From an uncultured Gammaproteobacteria bacterium (GTDB lineage: Bacteria; Patescibacteriota; Microgenomatia; Daviesbacterales; UBA10151), in the NCBI GenBank assembly GCA_964415615.1, contig CAYQAW010000001.1:40593-104592 (forward strand): a stretch of 64,000 nucleotides of DNA, in the 5' to 3' direction. The notes beneath the pieces are model-generated. The model was not told where the DNA came from. It ran no database searches and saw only the letters and a list, made by a program, of their open reading frames with translations. The position numbers were made by a program, and so were the translations under genes. Below are positions 38,324 through 55,340 of this stretch, piece after piece; positions within the stretch are counted from its first letter, which is position 1, and every line of letters begins with the position of its first letter.

Positions 38324-38994
38324 TTCAACCTTTCTACTGCTTCTTTGGTAACAAAAAGTAATTCATGTTTTACAATCTCATAGGCATTAATGAGGCTGAC
38401 CGGCAAAATATCTGCTTCCGGGATATTTCTGATAGCCCTGACTACATTATCCTGCTTTTCTCCAGTCACAATCAGTAAACTTTTAGCTTTTAGCTTTTTA
38501 AAAAGCTTTACCATTTCTTTGGTTTTACCTGAAGATTTTTCCAACCCTGATAATCCTATTATTTTCTTGTCAGCTGCTTTTTCAGAAAGAGCTGAAAGTA
38601 GGGCTGCTTTTTTCATCTTTCTTGGTAAATCTAATCTAATTTTGCGGGGTTTAGGACCAAAGGTTATTCCCCCACCCACAAAAATAGGTGCCCTTACTGC
38701 GCCATGCCTGGCTCTACCTGTTCCTTTTTGTCTATAAATTTTAGCAGTTGACCCTTCAACTTCTCCTCTGGTTTTAGTCGAACCTGGCAAATTCTTTTGA
38801 TTAGTAGTATAAACTTTGACTGCTTGTGCCAAAAGGCTTTTGCTTACTTTTTGACCAAAGATTTCCTTTGGCAAAGCTAAAGTTCCATCCTCTTTACCTG
38901 CTAAAGAATAAACAGGAATAGAAAGACTAGATCCTTCGACTCGCTTTGCTCGCTCAGGATGACTCGCTTTGCTCGTCACTTTCTTAACTGGCAT
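38320..38994 (-). CDS. rplD: 50S ribosomal protein L4
   Basis: 224 aa. ...IYRQKGTGRARHGAVRAPIFVGGG... Confidence 0.92.
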   Translation of the reverse strand: MPVKKVTSKASHPERAKRVEGSSLSIPVYSLAGKEDGTLALPKEIFGQKVSKSLLAQAVKVYTTNQKNLPGSTKTRGEVEGSTAKIYRQKGTGRARHGAVRAPIFVGGGITFGPKPRKIRLDLPRKMKKAALLSALSEKAADKKIIGLSGLEKSSGKTKEMVKLFKKLKAKSLLIVTGEKQDNVVRAIRNIPEADILPVSLINAYEIVKHELLFVTKEAVERLK

Positions 38995-39748
38995 TTTCTG
39001 TTCCTTCTTTTAGTGCTTCTTCAGTTGGCTGTTGGACCACTGTTTCTTGTTGATTTTCTGTCTTCTCTTCACCCTTTACGCTTTCCCCTTCGCCCTCTTC
39101 TTCTAGTTTTTCCTCTGGTGGAGGGGTGTAACCTTTAACCCTACCTAGCTTTGTCACAGTTATTAGTCCGCCGATAGGTCCTGGCACTGCACCTTTTATT
39201 ACAAGTAAATTGTTTATTTTATCAATTCCTACTACCTCTAAGTTCTTCACGCTAACTTGAACATATCCCATATGCCCTGCCATTCTTTTACCTTTATATA
39301 CTCTGCCTGGAGTTGTACCTGAACCAATTGCACCTGGTGCACGCAGTCTATCAGACTGACCGTGAGTCTTGGGACCACCATGAAAGCCATGGCGCCTTAC
39401 TCCGCCTTGGAATCCTTTACCTTTAGAAACTCCACTTACCTTTACTGCATCTCCCCTTGAAAAAACCTGGTCCAGTTTAATCTCTGTTCCAGGCTTTAAA
39501 TCTTGTTGCTCTGTTGTTTTAACCTCCCTAAACCATTTAATCTTTTGGTCAAGACCAGCTTTTTTGGCGTGTCCAATTTGGGGTTTTTTAACAGACTTTT
39601 TGGTACCAAACCCAAGTTGGACAGAAGCTGAATTAAGTTGGGTCACAAAATTAGGGGAAATTTCCACTACAGTTACCCCCACCCTTCTACCGCGGGAGTC
39701 ATATGTTGCTGTCATTTCTTTTTTAATACCCAGTAAACTGTTTATCAT
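38984..39748 (-). CDS. rplC: 50S ribosomal protein L3
   Basis: MINSLLGIKKEMTATYDSRGRRVGVTVVE. The start is taken at the ATG. The ORF track extends to a GTG at 39778. Confidence 0.88.
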   Translation of the reverse strand: MINSLLGIKKEMTATYDSRGRRVGVTVVEISPNFVTQLNSASVQLGFGTKKSVKKPQIGHAKKAGLDQKIKWFREVKTTEQQDLKPGTEIKLDQVFSRGDAVKVSGVSKGKGFQGGVRRHGFHGGPKTHGQSDRLRAPGAIGSGTTPGRVYKGKRMAGHMGYVQVSVKNLEVVGIDKINNLLVIKGAVPGPIGGLITVTKLGRVKGYTPPPEEKLEEEGEGESVKGEEKTENQQETVVQQPTEEALKEGTENAS

Positions 39749-39945
39749 ATTTAACCCAATAAAAAGAGTGACCTCCACCTTTGGCGGATGGTCACTCAGT
39801 ATCTCGCCTAGACTCGCCGTATCGACAACCGACGCACGATCTACTGAAAATTTAACAATTTAAATTTAACCTGACAGTAATGTCATGCTCTCAAGAGATT
39901 CTAACACGAACTCATGCCTAAATGCAAGCTAGCTTAAATAAGGGC

Positions 39946-39974
39946 TTGACATTCGGCTTTTATTGGGGTATAAA
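39946..39974 (+). promoter_or_regulatory. near-consensus sigma-70 promoter (TTGACA-17-TATAAA) for the PUR-alpha-like gene
   Basis: The -35 box TTGACA is at 39946-39951, followed by a 17-nt spacer and the -10 box TATAAA at 39969-39974. The RBS GGGAAGGGGGTGAG is at 39996-40009 and the ATG at 40019. Confidence 0.55.
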
Positions 39975-40018
39975 TATTTTAGGTACGAGTAATTTGGGAA
40001 GGGGGTGAGAATTAAGAG

Positions 40019-40252
40019 ATGGAAAAGAGTATTAAACAAACTGTTAAATCCTCAATGCTTAGGGCTGGCAAAAGAACATTTTTCTTTGATGTCAAAGTAG
40101 CTTCTAATAACAAGAAGTATCTAAAAATTACTGAGTCAGCTTTTGAGGGAGAAGGTAAGGAAAGAAGATATAATTCTTTTTTGCTTTGGCCTGAAAATTT
40201 AACTGATTTTCAACAAAGATTAACAGAAATCAATAATTTCCTAGCACAGTAA
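40019..40252 (+). CDS. PUR-alpha-like (DUF3276) small nucleic-acid-binding protein
   Basis: 77 aa. GKRTFFFDVKVASNNKKYLKITES...FLLWPENLTDFQQRL matches the bacterial PurA-like repeat (GKRTYFFDVK / YLKITES). Confidence 0.6.
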   Translation: MEKSIKQTVKSSMLRAGKRTFFFDVKVASNNKKYLKITESAFEGEGKERRYNSFLLWPENLTDFQQRLTEINNFLAQ

Positions 40253-40391
40253 ATAAAAGGTCTCTGACTACACTCAGGATAAACATGCCAGCTAAATTTA
40301 ATCTCCACAAAACAATCATATCATGGACAAAAATTTCTCGATCGGAAACAAATTGCCACAATATAACCTATTAAAACAAAAGGATAAATGA

Positions 40392-40703
40392 TTATTTAGA
40401 AGAAGGATCAGGCATAAAAGGATGTCGAAGGTTGTATAAAGCCCTAGCTTCAGTTTGTCTCATCCATCCAATTGAGTAAGGTCTCCCTCTTAATTCCATT
40501 CCTACTATTTCTCCAACTTCAGCAAATGACTTAGATCTACCATCATCTAAACCAAATCTTAATTGAAGCACTCTTCTTTCCCTATGAGTAAGCCCATTTA
40601 AAACTTCCTCTACTTCTCGCATTGACTCTTCTATGCTTTTTATAGTAAGGCTCGAAAACGATGCTGCTAATTCTGATTCATTTATATTTGGATTTTCTAC
40701 CAT
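40392..40703 (-). CDS. stand-alone sigma-70 region-4 (sigma 4.1/4.2 HTH) domain protein
   Basis: 103 aa. LNGLTHRERRVLQLRFGLDDGRSKSFAEVGEIVGMELRGRPYSIGWMRQTEARALYNLRHP aligns with RpoD region 4 (LTxRExxVLxxRFGLxDG...EVG...RQIEAKALRKLRHP). It carries a 7-aa insertion in the recognition helix. The gene starts 17 nt downstream of the rpsJ stop. Confidence 0.6.
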   Translation of the reverse strand: MVENPNINESELAASFSSLTIKSIEESMREVEEVLNGLTHRERRVLQLRFGLDDGRSKSFAEVGEIVGMELRGRPYSIGWMRQTEARALYNLRHPFMPDPSSK

Positions 40704-40720
40704 ATGAGTTTTGATTTATT

Positions 40721-41029
40721 CTACATTTTCACCTCAATGTCAACTCCAGCTGGAATTTCAAGATGCATTAGGGAATCTATAGTTTTAGGGGTAGGTTCTA
40801 TAATATCAATCATTCTTTTGTGGGTTTTTATTTCAAAAGCTTCTCTGGAATCTTTATCTGTATGGGGTGAGGCTAATACTGTAATTCTTTCAGTTTTTGT
40901 AGGAAGGGGTATTGGACCAACTATTTTTGCTCCAGTGCGAAGGGCTGTATCCAAAAGGGATTCACAGGTATTATCCAGTACCCTGTGATCATAACTTTTC
41001 AATTTGACACGAATACGTCCCCTCGGCAT
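40721..41029 (-). CDS. rpsJ: 30S ribosomal protein S10
   Basis: [40 protein letters not shown]. Confidence 0.93.
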
Positions 41030-41062
41030 AGTTTTTATTCCCCTTTAAAAGTGCATAATAGC

Positions 41063-42247
41063 TTAAGCTATTATCTTAGTAATAACTCCAGCACCAACTG
41101 TTTTTCCACCTTCTCTGATAGCAAAGCGGAGACCATCTTCCATAGCAACCGGTGTAATAAGCTTGCCTGTTACTTTAACTGTATCTCCAGGCATAGCCAT
41201 TTCCACACCTTCTGGAAGAGTGACTTCACCAGTCACGTCAGTAGTTCTGATATAAAATTGTGGTCTGTAACCTTTGAAAAATGGGGTGTGTCTTCCGCCT
41301 TCTTCTTTAGAAAGAATATAAACCTCAGCTTCAAATTCAGAATGTGGGGTAATGGATCCTGGTTTTGCCAATACTTGCCCTCTTTCTACATCATCTTTTT
41401 CAACACCTCTAAGGAGTATTCCAGCGTTGTCTCCAGCCTGACCTTCATCTAGCATCTTATGGAACATCTCAATACCTGTTACAACACTCTTTTTTGTAGG
41501 TCTAATACCGACAATTTCTATTTCCTCATTAACTTTAACCTTACCTCTTTCAATTCTTCCAGTAACAACTGTTCCTCTACCTTTAATAGAGAAAACATCT
41601 TCAACTGCCATTAAAAATGGTTTATCAGTATCTCTGACTGGAGTTGGAATCCATTCATCAACTTTATTCATCAATTCTTCTACTGCCTTTATGCTTTCTG
41701 GATCACCTTCTAAAGCTTTTTTAGCAGAACCTCGGATTATTGGAGACTGAGGGTCATATTCATATTTTTTAAGCAGATCTCTTACTTCTTCTTCAACTAA
41801 ATCCAAAAGCTCCGGGTCATCTACCATATCTACTTTATTTAGAAATACTACAATTGCTGGAACTCCTACCTGACGAGCCAAAAGCAAATGCTCTCTGGTT
41901 TGAGGCATTGGACCATCTGGAGCAGAAACAACTAGAATTGCTCCATCAGTTTGAGCAGCACCAGTGATCATGTTTTTGATGTAATCTGCATGGCCTGGCA
42001 TATCAATATGGGCGTAGTGTCTTTTTTCAGTTTCGTATTCTTGGTGGGAAATATTAATAGTAATACCGCGGGCTTTTTCCTCAGGAGCGTTGTCAATCTG
42101 ATCTACCGACCTTTTTTCTGCAAAACCTTTAGCAGCCAGTACATTGGTAATTGCTGCAGTTAAGGTGGTCTTACCATGGTCAACATGACCCATGGTTCCA
42201 ACATTAACGTGTGGTTTACTTCTATCAAATTTTTTTACGTCTGCCAT
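41063..42247 (-). CDS. tuf: elongation factor Tu
   Basis: [15 protein letters not shown]...DMPGHADY...NKVDMVDD. Confidence 0.97.
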
Positions 42248-42292
42248 AATTTTACCTTTAAAATCCAGCTCTCTTTAGCTGGAACATTTATA

Positions 42293-42321
42293 AATATAAC
42301 GTATTTGCAAAATAAATGCAA
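42293..42321 (-). promoter_or_regulatory. candidate sigma-70 promoter (TTGCAT-17-TATATT) upstream of tuf, preceded by a short hairpin
   Basis: The minus strand reads TTGCAT-ttattttgcaaatacgt-TATATT. The hairpin CCAGCTaaagagAGCTGG lies at 42265-42282. Confidence 0.3.
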
Positions 42322-42337
42322 TAGTTAAATTTGAAAG

Positions 42338-42685
42338 CTACTTTGTACACCCATCTGGATAATTTCCTTCAAAACCAGGTCTACACAAAGAAGAACCTCC
42401 ATGGTAATTAGAGCAAAAGTTATTACCTGCATTACCTTCAAAACCTGTTGTACAACTTACATCCTGAGGAAATTGAGTACTAGAAACAGATGATTTAAAA
42501 ATTTTATCTTTAAAAATAAAAACTGCTACCCCTATAATTAAAAATATAACTATTATAACCACTGGTAGCAAAAAATTCTTTTTAGCTCCAGGTACATTTG
42601 GAACTATTTTAGGGTCAGCTATAATTACCTGAGGCTGCGGAGCAATTGGTGATTGAGTAGGTGCTTGAGATTGTGTCGGCTCCAT
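42338..42685 (-). CDS. small membrane protein with a Cys-rich extracytoplasmic tail (hypothetical)
   Basis: 115 aa. Pro/Gln-rich N-terminus, one TM (LLPVVIIVIFLIIGVAVFIF), then CTTGFEGNAGNNFCSNYHGGSSLCRPGFEGNYPDGC with a GFEGN repeat. Confidence 0.45.
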   Translation of the reverse strand: MEPTQSQAPTQSPIAPQPQVIIADPKIVPNVPGAKKNFLLPVVIIVIFLIIGVAVFIFKDKIFKSSVSSTQFPQDVSCTTGFEGNAGNNFCSNYHGGSSLCRPGFEGNYPDGCTK

Positions 42686-42740
42686 ATCATATTTTGCTCA
42701 TGAATTATCTTTTCTGTCAAATTTTAGATTTAAACCAGTG

Positions 42741-42774
42741 ACAAAATACCCTACGGCCGTATGCAAAATTGTCA
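42741..42774. repeat. direct repeat copy 1 (34 nt) containing the palindrome TACGGCCGTA, flanking the PIN/HTH cassette
   Basis: ACAAAATACCCTACGGCCGTATGCAAAATTGTCA. The second copy at 43514-43547 differs at 4 positions. Confidence 0.7.
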
Positions 42775-42788
42775 AAACTTTTTGGTAA

Positions 42789-43205
42789 TTATTGCAAGCT
42801 TCTTAAATACTGTAAAAATCTTGCCGGAGTTGTTACTACGATCTTCAATTCTTGGATAATTTTATCAATCTTAAAATCCTTTGTATTATACGAAAGAAGG
42901 TATTTTGCCTTTGCTTTCTTCACACCAGCAATTATGTGAACATCGTCTAAATCCAAAGTATAATTTTTGAAGCTTTTTTTTACTTCTTTTAATTGAACAA
43001 CATTTAATTTTTCTTTGACTACTTCTGCTAATTTATCTTTATTAAGCCCTAACCGGTCGCATACCTGCTCTAATTCTTCTATGGATTTATTTGAAACAAA
43101 AGATTGTAGATCAGTTTCATGGATAATGAAATATGCTGCACCTTTATCAGATATCAACGAAGAGATGATCACATCGGAGTCTAGAAAAACTTTTTTTCTT
43201 TTCAC
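42789..43205 (-). CDS. PIN-domain toxin (VapC-like)
   Basis: 138 aa. N-terminus KVFLDSDVIISSL and C-terminus DLDDVHIIAGVKKAKAKYLLSYNTKDF are present. The acidic-residue layout fits a PIN fold. Confidence 0.6.
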   Translation of the reverse strand: MKRKKVFLDSDVIISSLISDKGAAYFIIHETDLQSFVSNKSIEELEQVCDRLGLNKDKLAEVVKEKLNVVQLKEVKKSFKNYTLDLDDVHIIAGVKKAKAKYLLSYNTKDFKIDKIIQELKIVVTTPARFLQYLRSLQ

Positions 43206-43468
43206 AGCTTTGATCTTACTCGGGAGAGTTCTCTGTGTATTTTAGGAATTTTTTTTAAATCTTCTTTCTCTGCTTTTTGCAAATCTTCATCCAGTCCACT
43301 AAAAATAAAGGATATCGAGCTTTGGGGAATACGGTAAACTTTACCGATTTTTTTAGCCACGATTTCACCACGGCTGATCAAATCATAAACCGTATTTTTA
43401 CTAAGCTGCAACATTTCAGCCACTTGCTCAGGAGTATATACTCTAGGCAAATTTTGATTACTAAACAT
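43202..43468 (-). CDS. helix-turn-helix (excisionase/MerR-like) antitoxin partner of the PIN toxin
   Basis: 88 aa. YTPEQVAEMLQLSKNTVYDLISRGEIVAKKIGKVYRI is an excisionase-type HTH. Its last codons overlap the toxin gene by 4 nt. Confidence 0.55.
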   Translation of the reverse strand: MFSNQNLPRVYTPEQVAEMLQLSKNTVYDLISRGEIVAKKIGKVYRIPQSSISFIFSGLDEDLQKAEKEDLKKIPKIHRELSRVRSKL

Positions 43469-43474
43469 GTCTAA

Positions 43475-43503
43475 ATTGTACTAAACACTATAAAACATGT
43501 CAA
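43475..43503 (-). promoter_or_regulatory. sigma-70 promoter (TTGACA-17-TACAAT) for the antitoxin-toxin operon, apparently leaderless
   Basis: The minus strand reads TTGACA-tgttttatagtgtttag-TACAAT-ttagac-ATG. The imperfect palindrome TTTGCATACGGCCGTAGCAAA (candidate operator) lies about 20 nt upstream of the -35 box. Confidence 0.5.
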
Positions 43504-43513
43504 TAGACCAATT

Positions 43514-43547
43514 ACAAAATTTGCTACGGCCGTATGCAAAACTGTCA
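43514..43547. repeat. direct repeat copy 2 (34 nt) containing TACGGCCGTA
   Basis: ACAAAATTTGCTACGGCCGTATGCAAAACTGTCA. Confidence 0.7.
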
Positions 43548-43598
43548 CAGGTTGCTCTCCTCACAGCAAAAAGATAGAATAAGCATGAGACTTACTAA

Positions 43599-43913
43599 AT
43601 GAAAAAAGTTATACTGGTTATTTTCATTATTTTACTAGTTGGATACCTCTGCACTCAAAAAGAGGATATACAATCTTTGTGTAATTTACCTTACCATACC
43701 ACCGTAGAACAATGTTCAAATGGTGATATAATTATTGATCGTGGAGCTATTAATTATGATGGCACTGAAACTTATTTAGATAAAAATGGATTTTTTCTTT
43801 ACTCACGAGGTGGCTGGGGAGCATACCGGGAAAGTATATTATATAAGCTTAGAAAATCATTTAATAATCCGATCGGATGCGATACTAAAGAATTAACAAA
43901 TAAATGTAGTTAA
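43599..43913 (+). CDS. small exported Cys-containing protein (hypothetical)
   Basis: 104 aa with an N-terminal signal/TM ([15 protein letters not shown]) and 5 further Cys. Its 3' end overlaps the fusA stop by 4 nt on the opposite strand. Confidence 0.45.
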
Positions 43914-46048
43914 TGTTCTACTCTACCAGTAAAGCCTGAGGTTTCTATAATCTTTTGAGTAATATTACTTGGAACTGGTTCATAATGATCTGCTTCCATA
44001 TAATAAGTGGCTCTACCCTGAGACATACTTCTTATAGCTGTTGCATATCCATGCATTTCTGCTAGTGGCACTAAAGCCAAAACCACTCTGGCATTTCCAC
44101 TGGTTTCGGAAGAAAGGATTTGAGCTCTTTTTGAAGACAAATCACCAATAATCTCTCCTAAAAATTCCTCAGGGGTGGTAACCTCCACCTTCATTATTGG
44201 CTCAAGCAAAATCATATCTGCTTTTTTGGCTGCCTCAGACAAGCCTAAAGAAGCTGCAATTTTAAATGCTATCTCAGATGAATCAACATCATGGAATGAT
44301 CCATCATAAACTGTAACTTTAATATCTGTCACAGGGAATCCAGCCAAAATTCCAGTATCTTCTTTTTCAATAACTCCTTTTTCAATGGGAGGAATAAATT
44401 CTCTAGGAATTGCTCCACCCACAATTGCTGAGACAAATTCCCTACCCTGTCCGCGGGGCAAAGGTTCAATCTTGAGCAAACAATGGCCATATTGACCACG
44501 TCCACCTGTTTGTCTAATGTATTTACCCTCACCCTCTGCATATTTGGTAATAGTTTCTTTATAGGCAACTTGTGGTTGACCAACATTTGCCTCCAACTTA
44601 AACTCTCTTTTCATCCTATCTACCAGGATTTCAAGCTGCAGCTCACCCATACCGGCAATAATAGTTTGTCCTGTATCAGCGTCAGATCTAACTCTAAAAG
44701 TTGGATCTTCCTCAGCTAGTCTTTGCAGGGCAAACCCCAATTTTTCCTGATCAGATTTTGTTTTTGGCTCAATTGCCAAAGAAATAACTGGATCAGGAAA
44801 AGAGATAGATTCTAAAATAACAGGAGCAGTTCCATCACATAAGGTATTCCCAGTTATAGTATCTTTAAGTCCTACTGCAGCCACAATTTCCCCAGCCAAA
44901 GCCTGATCAATCTCTTCCCTGTCATTGGCATGCATCAAAAGAAGCCTCCCTACTCTTTCATTTAATTGCTTGGTGGAATTATAAACATAAGAACCACTCT
45001 TTAAAGTTCCTGAATAAACCCTAATGTAAGTTAATTTTCCAACATGAGGATCAACTTGAATTTTAAATGCTAAAGCAGCTAAAGGCGCAGCAGGATCACC
45101 CTTTCTTTCTTCAGCTTCCCCTGTTTGCGGATTTATTCCACTTGTAACATACACATCCTGAGGTGAAGGAAGATATTCAACAACAGCATCAAGCATTGGT
45201 TGAACACCTTTGTTTCTAAGAGAAGATCCAGCAAAAACTGGCACAATTTTACTCCCAATCACAGCCTTTCTTAAAGCTTTTTTGAGTTCTGTGACTGTAA
45301 TTTCAGTTCCGTTGAGATACTTTTCCATCAACACATCATCAGAACCTGCAATTTCCTCTACCAGTTTTTCCCTGGCAACTTTAACCTCATCTGCCATATC
45401 AGCAGGAACTTCTGTCTCACTGAATTTAGCGCCTGTTTGATCGCCTTCCCAAATTAGAGCCTTTTGAGTTAGTAAATCTACTACTCCTTTAAAATCATTT
45501 TCTTTGCCAATAGGTAAGTTATAAGCTATAGCATTAGCGCCTAGCCTGTCTCGAGCAGACTGAATAGTAGTGGCAAAATCTGCTCCCACCACATCCATTT
45601 TGTTGGAAAAAGCGATTAAAGGAACGCTATATTTATTGGCTTGTCTCCACACTGTTTCTGTTTGAGATTGTACCCCAGAGGAGGAATCTAAAACAATTAC
45701 TGCTCCATCCAAAACCCGCAGGGATCTTTCTACTTCTGCAGTAAAATCAACATGCCCTGGGGTATCAATTAAATTAATTCTTATTTCATTTCCTTCAAAA
45801 AGTCCTTTTTTAACTGTCCAAAAAGCAGTAATGGCTGCAGAAACAATGGTAATCCCACGTTCGCGCTCCTGCTCCATCCAGTCAGTAACAGTAGTTCCCT
45901 CATCAATATTTCCAATTTTATAAGTTCTACCTGTATAAAACAGGATTCTTTCTGTAGTAGTTGTTTTACCAGCATCAATATGGGCTATTATGCCTATATT
46001 ACGGATTCTATCAAGTGGGAAGTCCCTTTTAGTCTTTTGTATTGCCAT
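43910..46048 (-). CDS. fusA: elongation factor G
   Basis: 712 aa. [26 protein letters not shown]... Confidence 0.97.
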
Positions 46049-51300: not shown

Positions 51301-52002
51301 TTTAACTAAATCAGATACAGCTTTAAAAATTCCTTCCAACTGACCAATTTCTACAACTAAATTATCTCTCAACTTTTGGATTTCATGTCTACCTTTTAAC
51401 TCTTTTTCCTGTGCCTCAAGTTCAAATTTTTCCTTTTCCAGTTTCTTTTTAAGACCAGTTACGTCCTTTTTGAGCTGACTTTCAAAATCTTTGATCGTCT
51501 TTTCCAAATTTTCTTTTGCTTGGGAAATTTTTGTTTGTAAATCTTTCTCTAATTTTTCCAGAGCTGCAGTTTTACCAGAGGGATCAATACTAATCACAAT
51601 ATAGGAAGCAAAATATATTACTGCTTCCAAATTTTTGGGTGAAATATCCAGTATCAGGGATAATTTGGAAGGCGCACCTTTGACAAACCAGCTATGAGCC
51701 ACAGGAGAGGCAAGATTAATATGGCCCATTCTTTCTCTTCTGACCTTGCTTTGGGTAACCTCAACTCCGCACTTATCACAAATTACTCCCCGGAATCTAA
51801 TTCTTTTATATTTACCGCAGTAACATTCATAATCTTTAGTAGGCCCAAAGATATTTTCAGAAAACAGTCCATCTTTTTCAGCTTTTAAAGTTCTATAATT
51901 GATAGTTTCTGGTTTTGTAACCTCACCAAAAGACCAATTCCTTATTTGCTCAGGAGAAGCAACTGTGAGTCTTAAACTTTCAAAATCTACTAAATCGTTC
52001 AT
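48310..52002 (-). CDS. rpoC: DNA-directed RNA polymerase subunit beta'
   Basis: 1230 aa. An N-terminal zinc finger and NADFDGDQM catalytic loop are present. Confidence 0.97.
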
Positions 52003-55000
52003 TCTGCCTCCTTTACTTCAAAAGAACTGTCAGGAGCTCCCAGCTCTTCTATACTAGCAGTTGATTTCATATCTAGTGCTTCTTCAAGCTGCGCTATTTC
52101 AGTAGTCACTTCTTTACTCTTCTCAGCCTCAGCGACCTCAGTCACTATTTTTGCTCCCAGTGTTTCAACATAAAGTCCCAAGGCTTGCAATTCTTTAACC
52201 AACACCTTAAAAGATTCAGGAATTAAAGCCTGGGGAATATCAATTCCCTTAACAATTGCCTCAAAAGCTTTAGCCCGTCCTACTACATCATCAGATTTTA
52301 TAGTTAACATTTCTTGTAAGATATGCGCAGCTCCATATGCCTCCAAAGCCCACACTTCCATCTCTCCTAATCTTTGCCCTCCCATTTGAGCTTTTCCTCC
52401 CAAAGGCTGTTGAGTAACCAACGAATAAGGACCGGTGGAACGGGCATGAATTTTTTCCTCCACCATGTGAATTAATTTCAGGATATAATTTATACCCACC
52501 ACTACACTGCTTCCAAAAGGTTCCCCTGTTCTTCCGTCAAAAAGTTGTGTCTTACCGTCAGTTGAATACCCTGCTCTTTTTAATTCTTCCATTAATCTCT
52601 CTTCAGGAATCTTTTCAAAAACTGGCGCAGCTATTTTATAACCCAATTGCTTAGCCGCAAATGCCCAGTGTGTTTCTAGTAATTGTCCTAAGTTCATCCT
52701 GGAAAGAACTGATAGAGGAGAGATAATAATATCTATCGGAGTTCCATCAGCCATGTGTGGCATATCTGCAATCGGCACAATTTTGGAAATAACTCCTTTA
52801 TTACCATGGCGGCCTGCCAGTTTATCTCCGGCAGTCACTTTTCGGAGTTGAGCAACTTTTACTTTAATTCTCTGAAGAGTTCCTGTATCAAGCTCGTCTC
52901 CGTCATCTCGGGAAAGTATCTGCACTCCAATGACAGTACCCCGCTCACCATGAGGAATACGTAATGATGTATCTCTGACTTCCTTGGCTTTTTCTCCAAA
53001 AATAGCCCTAAGTAATCTTTCTTCAGCAGTCAACTCTGTTTCACCTTTGGGCTGAACTTTACCAATCAATATATCATTTGGCCTCACTTCTGCCCCAACT
53101 CTAACAATTCCTTTCTCGTCCAAATTAACTAGCGCTTCTTCAGACACATTAGGAATATCCGAAGTTAACTCTTCTGGTCCAAGCTTGGTTTCTACAACAT
53201 CGACTTCATATTCTTCAATATGAATTGAAGTTAACGCATCATCTTTTACTAACCTGTCTGAGATAACAATAGCATCTTCATAACCTAAACCATCAAAGCT
53301 CATATAGGCAATAAGTAAATTTTGACCTAAAGCCAACTCCCCGTTCTCACAAGCTGCGCCATCAATCAAAAGATCGCCTTTTTTCACCTTTTCATCTACC
53401 CCAACTACTGGTGTTTGCGAATAACAAGTTCCTTGAGGAGAGTGGACAAATTTCTTGATTTCGTACTTGATTTCATCCTGCTTAGTTTTCAAAATGAGCT
53501 TTTTCCCATCTACATATTTTATAGTTCCATCTTCCGGAGCTCTAACAACCCTACCCATATTATCAGCTACAATTCTCTCCATACCTGTACCTGAAATTGG
53601 AGCTGTAGGTCTGAGTAAAGGCACTGCCTGACACTGCATTTGGCTACCCATCAAAGCTCTGTTTGCATCATCATTGGCCAAAAATGGAATCAAAGAGGCA
53701 GATGTACCAAAAATCTGCTGGGGTGAAATATCAATTAAGGAAATATCTTTTGCTGTTCCTTCAAAGAAATTACCCTGATATCGGGTTGGCACTCTTTCAT
53801 CTAGAATGAAACCCTTCTCATCGGTATTTACAGTAGCCTCAGTAATATGAAAGTCTTCCTCATCATCGCCTGTAAAATAAATAACTTCATCAGTCACTTG
53901 TGGCTTACCTTTTTGTAGAACTACTTTTCTATAAGGAGTCTCTAAAAACCCATACTCATTTATCCTGGCATAAAGCGCCAGATATGTAACTAGTCCAATA
54001 TTTTGACCTTCAGGAGACCTGATAGGATCAATCCTGCCATATTGAGAGTGATTAATATCGCGTACAGAAAAAGATGCCCTATCTCTGGTAATACCGCCTG
54101 CTCCCATCACAGAAAGTCTCCTTAAATGATCAAGTTCAGATAAAGGATTTACTTGATCTAAAATAGAAGACAGTTGAGAGGAACGGAAAAATTCATTAAT
54201 AGCAGCAATCACTGGCTTGGCATTAATTAAACCACCTGGAGTGACTTCCTGATCAGCTGCTGTCAAACTCATTCTTTCTTTAATAATACGCTCAAGTCTT
54301 AAAACTCCAATTCTGAAAGCATTTTGCTGAACCAACTCACCGGCGCATCTAACACGGCGGTTTGCCAAATGATCTATATCATCCAGTTTACCCTCACCTT
54401 TACTTAATTTAATTAAATATTTTAAAGTAGCAATAATATCTTCTTTGGTTAAAATCCAATTATCGGGGGTATTTGGTATATTCAGACCAAGCCTTTTATT
54501 TATTTTATATCTGCCTACTTTAATTAAGTTGTAACGCCTGGAATTAAAAAACATTCCATCAAGTAGAGCTTTTGCATTATCTAATACTACCGGATCTCCT
54601 GGACGCATCTTTCTAAAAATCTCCAGAAGCGCCTCGTCAGTGTTGGCAGTTGGATCTTTGACTAGAGTTGCATCGATAAATTTGTCTTCTCCATTATCAA
54701 CGTCTTTGAAAAGCTCTACGATTGATTCATTGTCAGAAAATCCTAGAGCCCGGAGTAATGTGGTTGCAGCGAATTTTCTTCTCCTGTCAATCTTAGCTGT
54801 CAAAACTCCACCGCGGGTTATAGAAAACTCCAGCCATGAACCACGGTAAGGACGGATCTCTGCAGAAAATAATCTCCTTCCGGTAATTGGATCATCAGAG
54901 GCTTGGAAAAACACTCCAGGAGAACGGACTAACTGATTAATGATAACTCTCTCAACCCCATTTACGATAAAAGTACCTTTATCTGTCATTTGGGGAATAT

Positions 55001-55340
55001 CACCCAGAAACACATCCTGTTTATATCTTTGTCCTGTTTGCTTATTAATCAGGATTGCTTCAATTTTTAGAGGAGCATCATAAGTAACGCCTTTTTCACG
55101 GGCGATTTCTGCTGTATTTTTAGATTTACCAAAATAAAAGGACCCTAGCTGCAGGGTCCAATTCTTTCCTGTAAAATCTTCCACTGGGGAGATTTCTTCA
55201 AGGACTTCACCAATTCCAGTTTTAAGAAACCAATTATATGAATCAAGTTGAATTTGAATTAAATTAAGTTCTGGAACCAACGCTGGTGCTTTGCTCCAAT
55301 ATTTACGGTTATCTTTTGTATTAGATACGTTCAGTGACAT
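51999..55340 (-). CDS. rpoB: DNA-directed RNA polymerase subunit beta
   Basis: 1113 aa with conserved beta-subunit motifs throughout. It overlaps rpoC by 4 nt. Confidence 0.97.
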   Translation of the reverse strand: MSLNVSNTKDNRKYWSKAPALVPELNLIQIQLDSYNWFLKTGIGEVLEEISPVEDFTGKNWTLQLGSFYFGKSKNTAEIAREKGVTYDAPLKIEAILINKQTGQRYKQDVFLGDIPQMTDKGTFIVNGVERVIINQLVRSPGVFFQASDDPITGRRLFSAEIRPYRGSWLEFSITRGGVLTAKIDRRRKFAATTLLRALGFSDNESIVELFKDVDNGEDKFIDATLVKDPTANTDEALLEIFRKMRPGDPVVLDNAKALLDGMFFNSRRYNLIKVGRYKINKRLGLNIPNTPDNWILTKEDIIATLKYLIKLSKGEGKLDDIDHLANRRVRCAGELVQQNAFRIGVLRLERIIKERMSLTAADQEVTPGGLINAKPVIAAINEFFRSSQLSSILDQVNPLSELDHLRRLSVMGAGGITRDRASFSVRDINHSQYGRIDPIRSPEGQNIGLVTYLALYARINEYGFLETPYRKVVLQKGKPQVTDEVIYFTGDDEEDFHITEATVNTDEKGFILDERVPTRYQGNFFEGTAKDISLIDISPQQIFGTSASLIPFLANDDANRALMGSQMQCQAVPLLRPTAPISGTGMERIVADNMGRVVRAPEDGTIKYVDGKKLILKTKQDEIKYEIKKFVHSPQGTCYSQTPVVGVDEKVKKGDLLIDGAACENGELALGQNLLIAYMSFDGLGYEDAIVISDRLVKDDALTSIHIEEYEVDVVETKLGPEELTSDIPNVSEEALVNLDEKGIVRVGAEVRPNDILIGKVQPKGETELTAEERLLRAIFGEKAKEVRDTSLRIPHGERGTVIGVQILSRDDGDELDTGTLQRIKVKVAQLRKVTAGDKLAGRHGNKGVISKIVPIADMPHMADGTPIDIIISPLSVLSRMNLGQLLETHWAFAAKQLGYKIAAPVFEKIPEERLMEELKRAGYSTDGKTQLFDGRTGEPFGSSVVVGINYILKLIHMVEEKIHARSTGPYSLVTQQPLGGKAQMGGQRLGEMEVWALEAYGAAHILQEMLTIKSDDVVGRAKAFEAIVKGIDIPQALIPESFKVLVKELQALGLYVETLGAKIVTEVAEAEKSKEVTTEIAQLEEALDMKSTASIEELGAPDSSFEVKEAE

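Follow-up and report, generated by a model that had tools for sequence, protein, structure and literature searches.

In bacteria the gene for ribosomal protein S10 (rpsJ) is normally followed directly by the gene for ribosomal protein L3 (rplC). What keeps the two apart in an uncultured member of the Daviesbacterales (Patescibacteriota, Microgenomatia), and what is the small gene, resembling one part of a sigma factor, that stands between them? The question is raised by a 64,000-nt stretch of DNA (contig CAYQAW010000001.1, positions 40,593 to 104,592), here called the window, to which all coordinates refer. In the window, rpsJ (minus strand, 40721-41029, TAG stop; Pfam Ribosomal_S10, E=2.6e-36) is the last conserved gene of a fusA...tuf-rpsJ unit and lies 33 nt downstream of its upstream neighbour tuf (minus strand, 41063-42247). 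Its partner rplC (minus strand, 38984-39748, ATG at 39748; Pfam Ribosomal_L3), with a start that aligns with those of 60+ relatives, is the first gene of a downstream unit that continues with rplD, rplW and rplB. A preliminary description of the sequence had put ~970 nt between the two genes; the gap measures 972 nt (39749-40720) and all of the elements reported within it are found at the coordinates given there. They include a 103-aa open reading frame (ORF; minus strand, 40392-40703) with an ATG 17 nt past the rpsJ stop codon, separated from rplC by 643 nt that hold a plus-strand gene for a 77-aa protein (40019-40252). The ORF encodes region 4 of a sigma-70 factor (hereafter sigma-4), and the evidence establishes that it is a genuine, selected protein gene derived from the region 3.2-4.2 part of a group-1 sigma gene.

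Region 4 is, as had been claimed, the only part of a sigma factor present. The 103-aa protein matches Pfam Sigma70_r4 (E=4.7e-9; 36.1 bits, the gathering threshold, GA, being 24.1) as its sole sigma domain, and in a tblastn search over the whole window, full-length RpoD aligned through residues 349-407 only, with regions 1 to 3 unmatched. Over these residues of a Chloroflexota RpoD (P0091), the region 4.1-4.2 core of the protein (residues 30-95; minus strand, 40419-40616) is 59% identical (BLASTP and tblastn), and one stretch of 19 consecutive residues is identical to RpoD. In NCBIfam, the best alignments are with the C-terminal ends (last ~60 positions) of RpoD models, and a phmmer search of PDB sequences returned only primary-sigma chains, headed by Staphylococcus aureus SigA domain 4 (4g6d, E=1.6e-12); this entry ranks first solely because SigA domain 4 is part of it. 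An AlphaFold2 (AF2) model, with a mean predicted local distance difference test (pLDDT) score of 86, has four helices (residues 9-35, 40-50, 60-71 and 78-93), and its top Foldseek matches are all primary-sigma domain 4 structures (SigA, several species), with a root-mean-square deviation of 1.0-1.5 Å for the best superpositions of 67-78 residues. With a profile score above threshold and the four-helix sigma-4 fold, the protein belongs to the Sigma70_r4 superfamily (PF04545); it has the region 4 helix-turn-helix (HTH) of a functional sigma-70 factor and lacks the region 2 that such a factor requires. No GerE match was obtained at E<=1, and there was no UPF0122 match. NCBI lists an identical protein from Daviesbacteria, a lineage of the Microgenomates within the Candidate Phyla Radiation (CPR), as 'hypothetical protein HYT74_00580'.

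The preliminary description had also reported a 7-residue insertion in the HTH. Seven residues, M69-P75 (MELRGRP; minus strand, 40479-40499), are indeed inserted relative to RpoD (alignments A1 and A3), between two HTH helices, and AF2 predicts that they lengthen a helix by one turn and add a loop (residues 72-77), in a part modelled with high confidence (pLDDT means of 94-96 for 10-residue blocks of residues 51-90). They are, however, not an oddity of the window ORF but the conserved signature of a small family. Nine more short proteins with region 4 only have the same insertion; they include seven found by the exhaustive search described below, P0076 (165 aa), P0077 (76 aa), P0084 (137 aa), P0100 (123 aa), P0107 (200 aa), P0166 (109 aa) and P0167 (147 aa), and P0220, which is 75% identical to P0167. 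The RG[KR]P core of the insertion is conserved across the family and appears to resemble that of an AT-hook. We define the family, 'sigma-4 with RG[KR]P insertion', as proteins of 76-200 aa that have region 4 only and G-x-x-x-R-G-[KR]-P between the HTH helices; the window protein has the size, the domain content and the insertion of a member, and the family consensus is G-[MLN]-x-x-[RY]-G-[KRG]-[PAG]-[YL]-[ST]-x-[EG]-[RW]-x-[RH]-Q-x-E.

Several simple origins of the insertion family were considered and rejected. A pseudogene or frameshift origin of the insertion is contradicted by the other two frames of 40380-40740, which are full of stop codons and do not encode VTRERIRQ; with these frames closed, the 103-aa ORF is not a frameshifted part of a larger gene. 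An exhaustive search was made over 1.84 billion representative proteins and the best 150 were inspected for a full-length sigma factor with the insertion. There was none among them, the high scorers P0219 and P0221 being chimeric RpoD assemblies that lack the insertion, so that a recent fragment of the resident rpoD is rejected as far as these data reach. A DNA pattern for the signature matched the window and eight fetched loci, with 0 matches expected by chance, and had 0 matches in JGI metagenome contigs and in IMG/VR, from which it follows that the family is rare. A phage origin was rejected given the absence of matches in IMG/VR, with PHROGs returning only a generic sigma family, and membership of a defence system was rejected since the PADLOC match was to the generic sigma part of MzaA only. 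No homology to known anti-sigma families was found, the PADLOC and PHROGs matches being to generic sigma families only. Separately, metagenomes encode proteins with tandem sigma-4-like units (P0072, P0074, P0075, P0097, P0113 and P0281): P0072 (938 aa) has ~10 sigma-4-like repeats, P0075 has a full sigma factor followed by several extra sigma-4 units, and there are small two-domain forms as well.

Location and sequence evolution both bear on the reality of the gene. P0076 (Daviesbacteria HYU95_02190; L084-86), P0084 (L083), P0167 (L089) and P0220 (L090) start 14-19 nt past the stop codon of a Daviesbacteria-type rpsJ. The position downstream of rpsJ on the same strand is thus shared by the window, L083, L084-86, L089 and L090 and not by L081, L082, L087 and L088; within the insertion family it is frequent but not universal. 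An assembly error had to be considered for so unusual a gene order, but the recurrence of rpsJ followed by sigma-4 in independent assemblies (L083, L084-86, L089 and L090) shows that it is no artefact. The layout is minimal in L090, in which rpsJ, the sigma-4 gene, ~200 nt and rplC follow each other. Elsewhere, P0166 is encoded within a nusA-infB ... rpsO-pnp cluster, P0100 after ddl, and P0107 on a 225-kb contig of unknown genes. Comparison of P0167 with P0220 gives a ratio of nonsynonymous to synonymous substitution rates (dN/dS) of 0.35 overall, 0.28 for the sigma-4 part and 0.42 for the N-terminal part. That N-terminus in P0167 aligns with the end of RpoD region 3.1 and with region 3.2, with the finger tip deleted, an alignment from which we infer that the insertion family arose out of a group-1 sigma gene, from its 3' half. 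In P0167 and P0220 (L089 and L090) alike, the N-terminus matches RpoD region 3.2 except for a precise deletion that removes the acidic finger-tip loop (TPIGEEE). A DUF4258-like ORF, a DUF2283 gene or both lie downstream of the insertion-bearing sigma-4 gene in L083, L084-86, L088 and L089; the full pair, in L085/86 and L089, has the look of a toxin-antitoxin system. In L085 the DUF2283 match is above the Pfam threshold and the DUF4258 match, at E=0.007, is below GA; the L089 homologue has no Pfam match.

Sigma-4-like ORFs that lack the insertion occupy the same place in other genomes. A survey of 80 rpsJ loci from GTDB species representatives identified ORFs of 101-125 aa directly after rpsJ in six Daviesbacteria (L001, L002, L008, L023, L028 and L030), all with a sigma-4-type HTH and without the insertion. 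All six match a family hidden Markov model (HMM) with E values of 1e-16 to 1e-31. When the six are aligned with the window protein, five of the seven match Sigma70_r4 and two weakly match GerE/HTH models (best GerE E=0.015). The preliminary description had asked whether small sigma-4 proteins recur at this junction in related genomes; they do, with and without the insertion. Judged by S10, L001 and L002 are the closest relatives of the window (99% and 98% identical). Their sigma-4-like proteins are only 29% identical to that of the window and yet have the same unusual ...PDPS... C-terminus, and we read this combination as probable orthology with very fast divergence. A six-frame HMM search found no sigma-4 remnants in the junctions that lack the gene, and the absence of frameshifted remnants points to a gene that is either cleanly present or cleanly absent, not to one that decays slowly.

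What might such a protein do? We judge the chances to be about even that a real, selected gene here supplies a sigma-4 module that acts in trans. The spacer between the tuf-rpsJ and rplC units would tolerate inserted genes, of which the window genome apparently carries two, and the sigma-4 gene would be transcribed together with tuf-rpsJ and probably translated by coupling to rpsJ. Such co-expression had been raised in the preliminary description and is plausible, with spacers of 33 nt and 17 nt, no terminator detected between rpsJ and the ORF by a terminator scan and no Shine-Dalgarno sequence of the ORF's own. The scan also detected none after the ORF, where the RNA (40245-40400) folds like its shuffles (z=0.21). 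The free sigma-4 domain would most likely bind -35-like DNA and/or the beta-flap of RNA polymerase in trans. Competition of this kind, in the manner of an anti-sigma factor or appropriator, had been suggested in the preliminary description. The gene for the RNA polymerase beta subunit, rpoB, is itself in the window (51999-55340). Initiation that depends on a -35 element would thereby be dampened or redirected in step with the expression of translation genes, and extended -10 promoters, such as the adjacent rplC promoter, would be least affected. When the -35-reading residues, in Escherichia coli sigma-70 numbering, are mapped by reading alignment A3 plus P0220, the presumed equivalents of R554, R562 and Q589 are kept in all nine aligned family members, R588 in eight, R586 in seven and E585 in six, and that of R584 in none. 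The retention of these recognition residues speaks for contact with DNA, and that of homology to the 3.2 linker in P0167 and P0220 for contact with the polymerase.

A trans-acting sigma-4 module must, however, be weighed against several facts. In the same numbering, the window copy has lost three of the six base-contact residues (R584I, E585G and R586W), and it is without the C-terminal helix found in RpoD and in most family members; with these losses it may bind a -35 element or the beta-flap poorly. The recognition helix of the L001 and L002 proteins is not RpoD-like, despite the near-identity of S10, and this, with the 29% identity, is more in keeping with an accessory gene that evolves fast than with a core regulator. 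A sigma-4-like ORF is present in only 4-6 of ~35 GTDB Daviesbacteria junctions; the gene is dispensable in most relatives as well as quick to evolve, and the insertion family is rare, with no match to its signature in JGI metagenome contigs. Finally, one or both of the DUF4258-like and DUF2283 genes come after the sigma-4 gene in L083-86 and L089, as they do in L088 after P0077, which is not linked to rpsJ, and this would fit a local regulator. A more ambitious form of action in trans, in which free region 4 is made in proportion to elongation factor Tu (EF-Tu) and S10 and competes with region 4 of the resident sigma factor for the beta-flap and/or -35 elements, we consider unlikely. If true, RNA polymerase would be shifted away from -35-dependent promoters and towards those with an extended -10, of which the conserved TGnTAnAAT of the rplC operon is an example, and the gene would provide global regulation by 'sigma-4 in trans' that is built in and coupled to growth; we know of no description of such transcription control in cellular organisms.

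Among the alternatives, the one that survives best, and that we regard as possible although doubtful, is that the protein is an ordinary small HTH regulator of local genes, of GerE/LuxR type or like region 4 of an extracytoplasmic function (ECF) sigma factor, that has its descent from sigma region 4 but does not touch RNA polymerase. Its targets could be the DUF4258-like/DUF2283 cargo, where present, or the divergent DUF3276 and rplC promoters described below. The fold is that of an HTH, the insertion-less relatives have diverged recognition helices and include the two weak GerE/HTH matches, and the RG[KR]P loop, if its likeness to an AT-hook holds, would add DNA contacts. On the other hand, there is no toxin-antitoxin pair beside the gene in the window, L001, L002, L028 or L090. 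RpoD-like residues are retained far beyond what is generic to an HTH, as in the 19 consecutive identities, and P0167 and P0220 keep the sigma 3.2 linker, which has no role in plain DNA binding, under purifying selection. A monomeric sigma-4 domain, moreover, reads only ~6 bp.

The gene could also be a non-functional or decaying fragment, left by a partial duplication or transfer of rpoD and kept as an ORF because the spacer is permissive, an explanation that we think quite unlikely. The window copy does lack a Shine-Dalgarno sequence, three of its six base-contact residues and the C-terminal helix, and the distribution is patchy and among mobile cargo (GIY-YIG nucleases, toxin-antitoxin pairs and a transposase). 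Decay is nevertheless hard to reconcile with the at least 10 lineages, mutually <50% identical, in which the ORF (76-200 aa) is intact and always has the insertion and the hydrophobic core, nor does it accord with a dN/dS of 0.35, a conserved place right after rpsJ, the good Shine-Dalgarno sequences of the L001 and L002 genes and the lack of frameshifted remnants in other junctions.

That the protein is one half of a split sigma factor had been proposed in the preliminary description and is now very improbable. In such a two-subunit factor, of which SigO-RsoA of Bacillus subtilis is an example, it would provide region 4 in trans to a sigma factor without one. This would account for the presence of region 4 alone and for the remnants of the 3.2 linker, which in sigma factors threads to the beta-flap, but the proposal finds no local support, as neither the 64-kb window nor any related locus has a region-2/3-like ORF. 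In addition, most Daviesbacteria have no sigma-4 gene, so that it cannot be an essential sigma part, and the recognition helix varies greatly among orthologous positions. An accessory defence gene, whose product imitates host sigma region 4 and as a decoy titrates phage proteins that target sigma-4 or the beta-flap, in the way of T4 AsiA or phage G1 gp67, would suit the close mimicry of primary sigma region 4, the rapid evolution, the patchy distribution and the cargo hot spot beside toxin-antitoxin modules, but is purely speculative and most improbable, there being no defence-family match beyond the generic sigma part of MzaA and no association seen with known defence genes.

The window protein can be compared with several known systems. 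With region 4 of primary (group-1) sigma factors, the window protein shares the Pfam domain, the four-helix fold, the LRFGL core and the presumed equivalents of R588 and Q589; it differs in being a stand-alone protein of 103 aa without regions 1-3, in an HTH turn that holds the 7-residue RG[KR]P insertion, in having no C-terminal helix and in the replacement of the residues taken to be R584, E585 and R586. In SigO-RsoA and other split sigma factors, sigma functions are on separate small polypeptides, as here, but the sigma-4 gene has no adjacent partner and is absent from most relatives. T4 AsiA and gp33, phage G1 gp67 and Rsd are factors that act on sigma-4 or on the beta-flap, and the proposed outcome, altered use of -35 elements by RNA polymerase, would be similar; there is no homology, however, and the window protein would be a copy of sigma-4 rather than a binder of it. 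GerE/LuxR-type regulators and YlxM (UPF0122), which is encoded within a translation-related operon, are likewise small proteins with a sigma-4-like HTH, whereas the window protein is clearly of RpoD type, with no GerE or UPF0122 match.

The sigma-4 domain is classical, one of the most thoroughly studied in bacterial transcription, and the proteins of the insertion family are labelled hypothetical at NCBI. To our knowledge, sigma region 4 has not been recognized as an independent, selected cellular protein, and a full-text literature search yielded no account of stand-alone sigma-4 proteins and none of ribosomal-protein leaders in CPR. The observation is solid and reproducible; the lineage is uncultivated and the distribution narrow. 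A conserved family that has a signature HTH loop and is linked to the close of the tuf-rpsJ unit, in a lineage with ultrasmall genomes, is an object with which to ask whether control of RNA polymerase at the sigma-4/beta-flap/-35 interface is exerted by cells as well as by phages. As these organisms are uncultivated, the impact of the finding hinges on heterologous experiments.

Turning to the junction itself, the separation of rpsJ from rplC, which the preliminary description had presented as a split of the junction, is real but not special to the window: throughout Daviesbacteria the junction is an inter-operon spacer and a hot spot for cargo. The gap is 177 to >2600 nt in Daviesbacteria, ~85-2700 nt (mostly ~85-690) in other Microgenomates and 3-47 nt in the outgroups L047, L058, L065 and L075. 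Sigma-4 genes, DUF3276 genes, GIY-YIG nucleases, PIN and DUF4258-like/DUF2283 pairs, genes for membrane proteins and one for a GDSL lipase of 1027 aa are all found as cargo in Daviesbacteria. In the 32 unbiased GTDB loci that contain the leader described below, a sigma-4-like ORF is present in four and DUF3276 in four, and the two are independent, patchily distributed passengers in the spacer. GIY-YIG nuclease genes, for proteins of ~90-100 aa, occur in the rpsJ-rplC gap of five relatives (L008, L010, L022, L026 and L057), insertions that fit the junction as a hot spot for mobile elements.

Whatever the cargo, a promoter and a leader precede rplC, and this constancy, across gaps of 177 to >2600 nt, leads us to infer that throughout Daviesbacteria tuf-rpsJ closes one transcription unit and that rplC opens another. 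The preliminary description had suggested a separate promoter and leader for rplC, and the comparative data strengthen that suggestion and support it well. The putative promoter (minus strand, 39898-39927) has a -35 element, TTGCAT (39927-39922), 18 nt before an extended -10 element, TGtTAGAAT (39906-39898). In most of 27 Daviesbacteria loci a TG-extended -10 (TGtTA[AG]AAT-like) can be recognized upstream of the leader, its distance unchanged, and TTGCAT is visible wherever the examined stretch reaches that far. The linkage of rpsJ to rplC, commonly held to be 'universal', would thus be a transcriptional break and cargo hot spot in Daviesbacteria, which is relevant to the use of ribosomal-protein synteny in phylogenomics and binning. 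In Microgenomates other than Daviesbacteria (L041-L080; Roizman-, Woese-, Ames- and Collierbacteria, among others), there is mostly a short GC-rich hairpin with a U-run directly before rplC, for example GCCCCAATCTGGGGCTTATTTTTTT. With a spacer and such a hairpin and U-run before rplC in most Microgenomates, the transcriptional break may be general in that superphylum.

The structured leader of ~95 nt (minus strand, 39758-39853) begins ~45 nt downstream of the promoter, has a 5' domain TCAGTA..TCG(C/T)GCGT / ACGGCGA / GCGAGATACTGA and ends with GAGTGAC...GTCACTC plus U5. It had been described as GC-rich and structured, and it has a GC content of 48%, against 36% for the window, and a fold with z=-4.09, with 0 of 200 shuffles as stable. 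RNAalifold, applied to a 26-sequence alignment (A4), predicts 18 pairs, 8 of them with compensatory changes; 95.7% of the alignment cells are paired, against 87.1% in shuffles and 37-55% in slid controls, and the covariation of 0.329, against 0.160 in shuffles, was reached by 0 of 500 shuffles. The terminator-like hairpin (minus strand, 39761-39797), GAGTGACC...GGTCACTC plus UUUUU, ends ~12 nt before the rplC ATG and has 11 pairs, 6 of which are changed on both sides, with 93% of cells paired and an invariant U-run. The 5' strand TCG(C/T)GCGT can pair either with the near segment ACGGCGA (100% of cells) or with the far segment GCGAGA...TACTGA, which is favoured by minimum free energy (MFE) folds of single sequences; because both segments co-vary with the 5' strand, the alignment suggests that the leader adopts alternative conformations.

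A covariance model of the leader (R1) finds exactly one copy per source in 37 sources, always before rplC, and no copies elsewhere in the window or in non-Daviesbacteria loci. Sources include the window, a subset of L001-L040, L057, L084, L090, L092 and L094. A search of 38500-43000 of the window with Rfam 15, the known ribosomal-protein leaders included, gave 0 matches at E<=1. The element has the conserved, covarying structure, in the 5' untranslated region of a ribosomal-protein operon, that is expected of a ribosomal-protein leader, and we regard it as a candidate for a new, Daviesbacteria-specific cis-regulatory RNA. In the S10 operon of E. coli, the leader mediates attenuation by L4. Like that leader and those of ribosomal-protein operons in Rfam, the Daviesbacteria leader is a structured 5' element with an intrinsic-terminator-like hairpin directly before rplC-rplD; it differs from the E. 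coli leader in preceding rplC rather than rpsJ, and from the Rfam leaders in being unmatched by them and confined to Daviesbacteria. By analogy, an attenuator that responds to L3 or L4 is the natural hypothesis. We know of almost no cis-regulatory RNAs catalogued in CPR, for which this leader provides a clean candidate ribosomal-protein leader RNA.

The second passenger, the plus-strand gene at 40019-40252, is convergent with the sigma-4 ORF and divergent from rplC and encodes a DUF3276 protein with a single PUR repeat. Its identification in the preliminary description as PUR-alpha-like was borne out, with a Pfam DUF3276 match of E=9e-12 (45.7 bits, GA 23.1) and matches in PDB to the Borrelia PUR-like proteins 3NM7 (E=0.002) and 3N8B (E=0.0044) and to Drosophila Pur-alpha 3K44 (E=0.049); the score above threshold and the similarity to PUR-repeat structures place it among the DUF3276/bacterial PUR-alpha-like proteins. 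More than 120 homologues of ~77 aa, 53-92% identical and named 'DUF3276 family protein', are known from Daviesbacteria/Microgenomates, and the gene lies between rpsJ and rplC in the same orientation in L003, L005, L008, L010, L012 and L092-94, mostly without a sigma-4 gene. It resembles Bpur of Borrelia burgdorferi, the source of 3NM7 and 3N8B, as a single PUR repeat, and differs in that the gene recurs next to rplC in Daviesbacteria; the protein is also shorter than the 131-position Pfam model, of which it covers positions 9-82. By sequence, it is a member of a known, ordinary and widely conserved nucleic-acid-binding family and unrelated to the sigma-4 gene. A putative promoter of its own, TTGACA (39946-39951), 17 nt and TATAAA (39969-39974), all on the plus strand and matching the consensus, can be read in the sequence, as had been noted, together with a Shine-Dalgarno sequence, GGGGGTGAG, 9 nt before the ATG. 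Our promoter scan overlooked this site for the sole reason that it demands a T as the sixth base of the -10 hexamer. The promoter-like sites of DUF3276 and rplC are back-to-back, with 18 nt between their -35 hexamers.

Inserted cargo is likewise present at the fusA-tuf junction (42248-43909), where ~1.7 kb separates fusA (minus strand, 43910-46048) from tuf. It comprises a 115-aa ORF (42338-42685), a toxin-antitoxin-like pair formed by PIN_3 (42789-43205) and HTH_17 (43202-43468), and a 104-aa ORF (plus strand, 43599-43913). In the relatives L084 and L092-94, ParE/PhdYeFM is found in place of this cargo. The L3 protein encoded in the window has an acidic, E/K-rich C-terminal extension of ~45 residues (38984-39150), ...PPPEEKLEEEGEGESVKGEEKTENQQ..., of the type found on CPR ribosomal proteins, and the 3' end of rplC overlaps the start of rplD by 11 nt.

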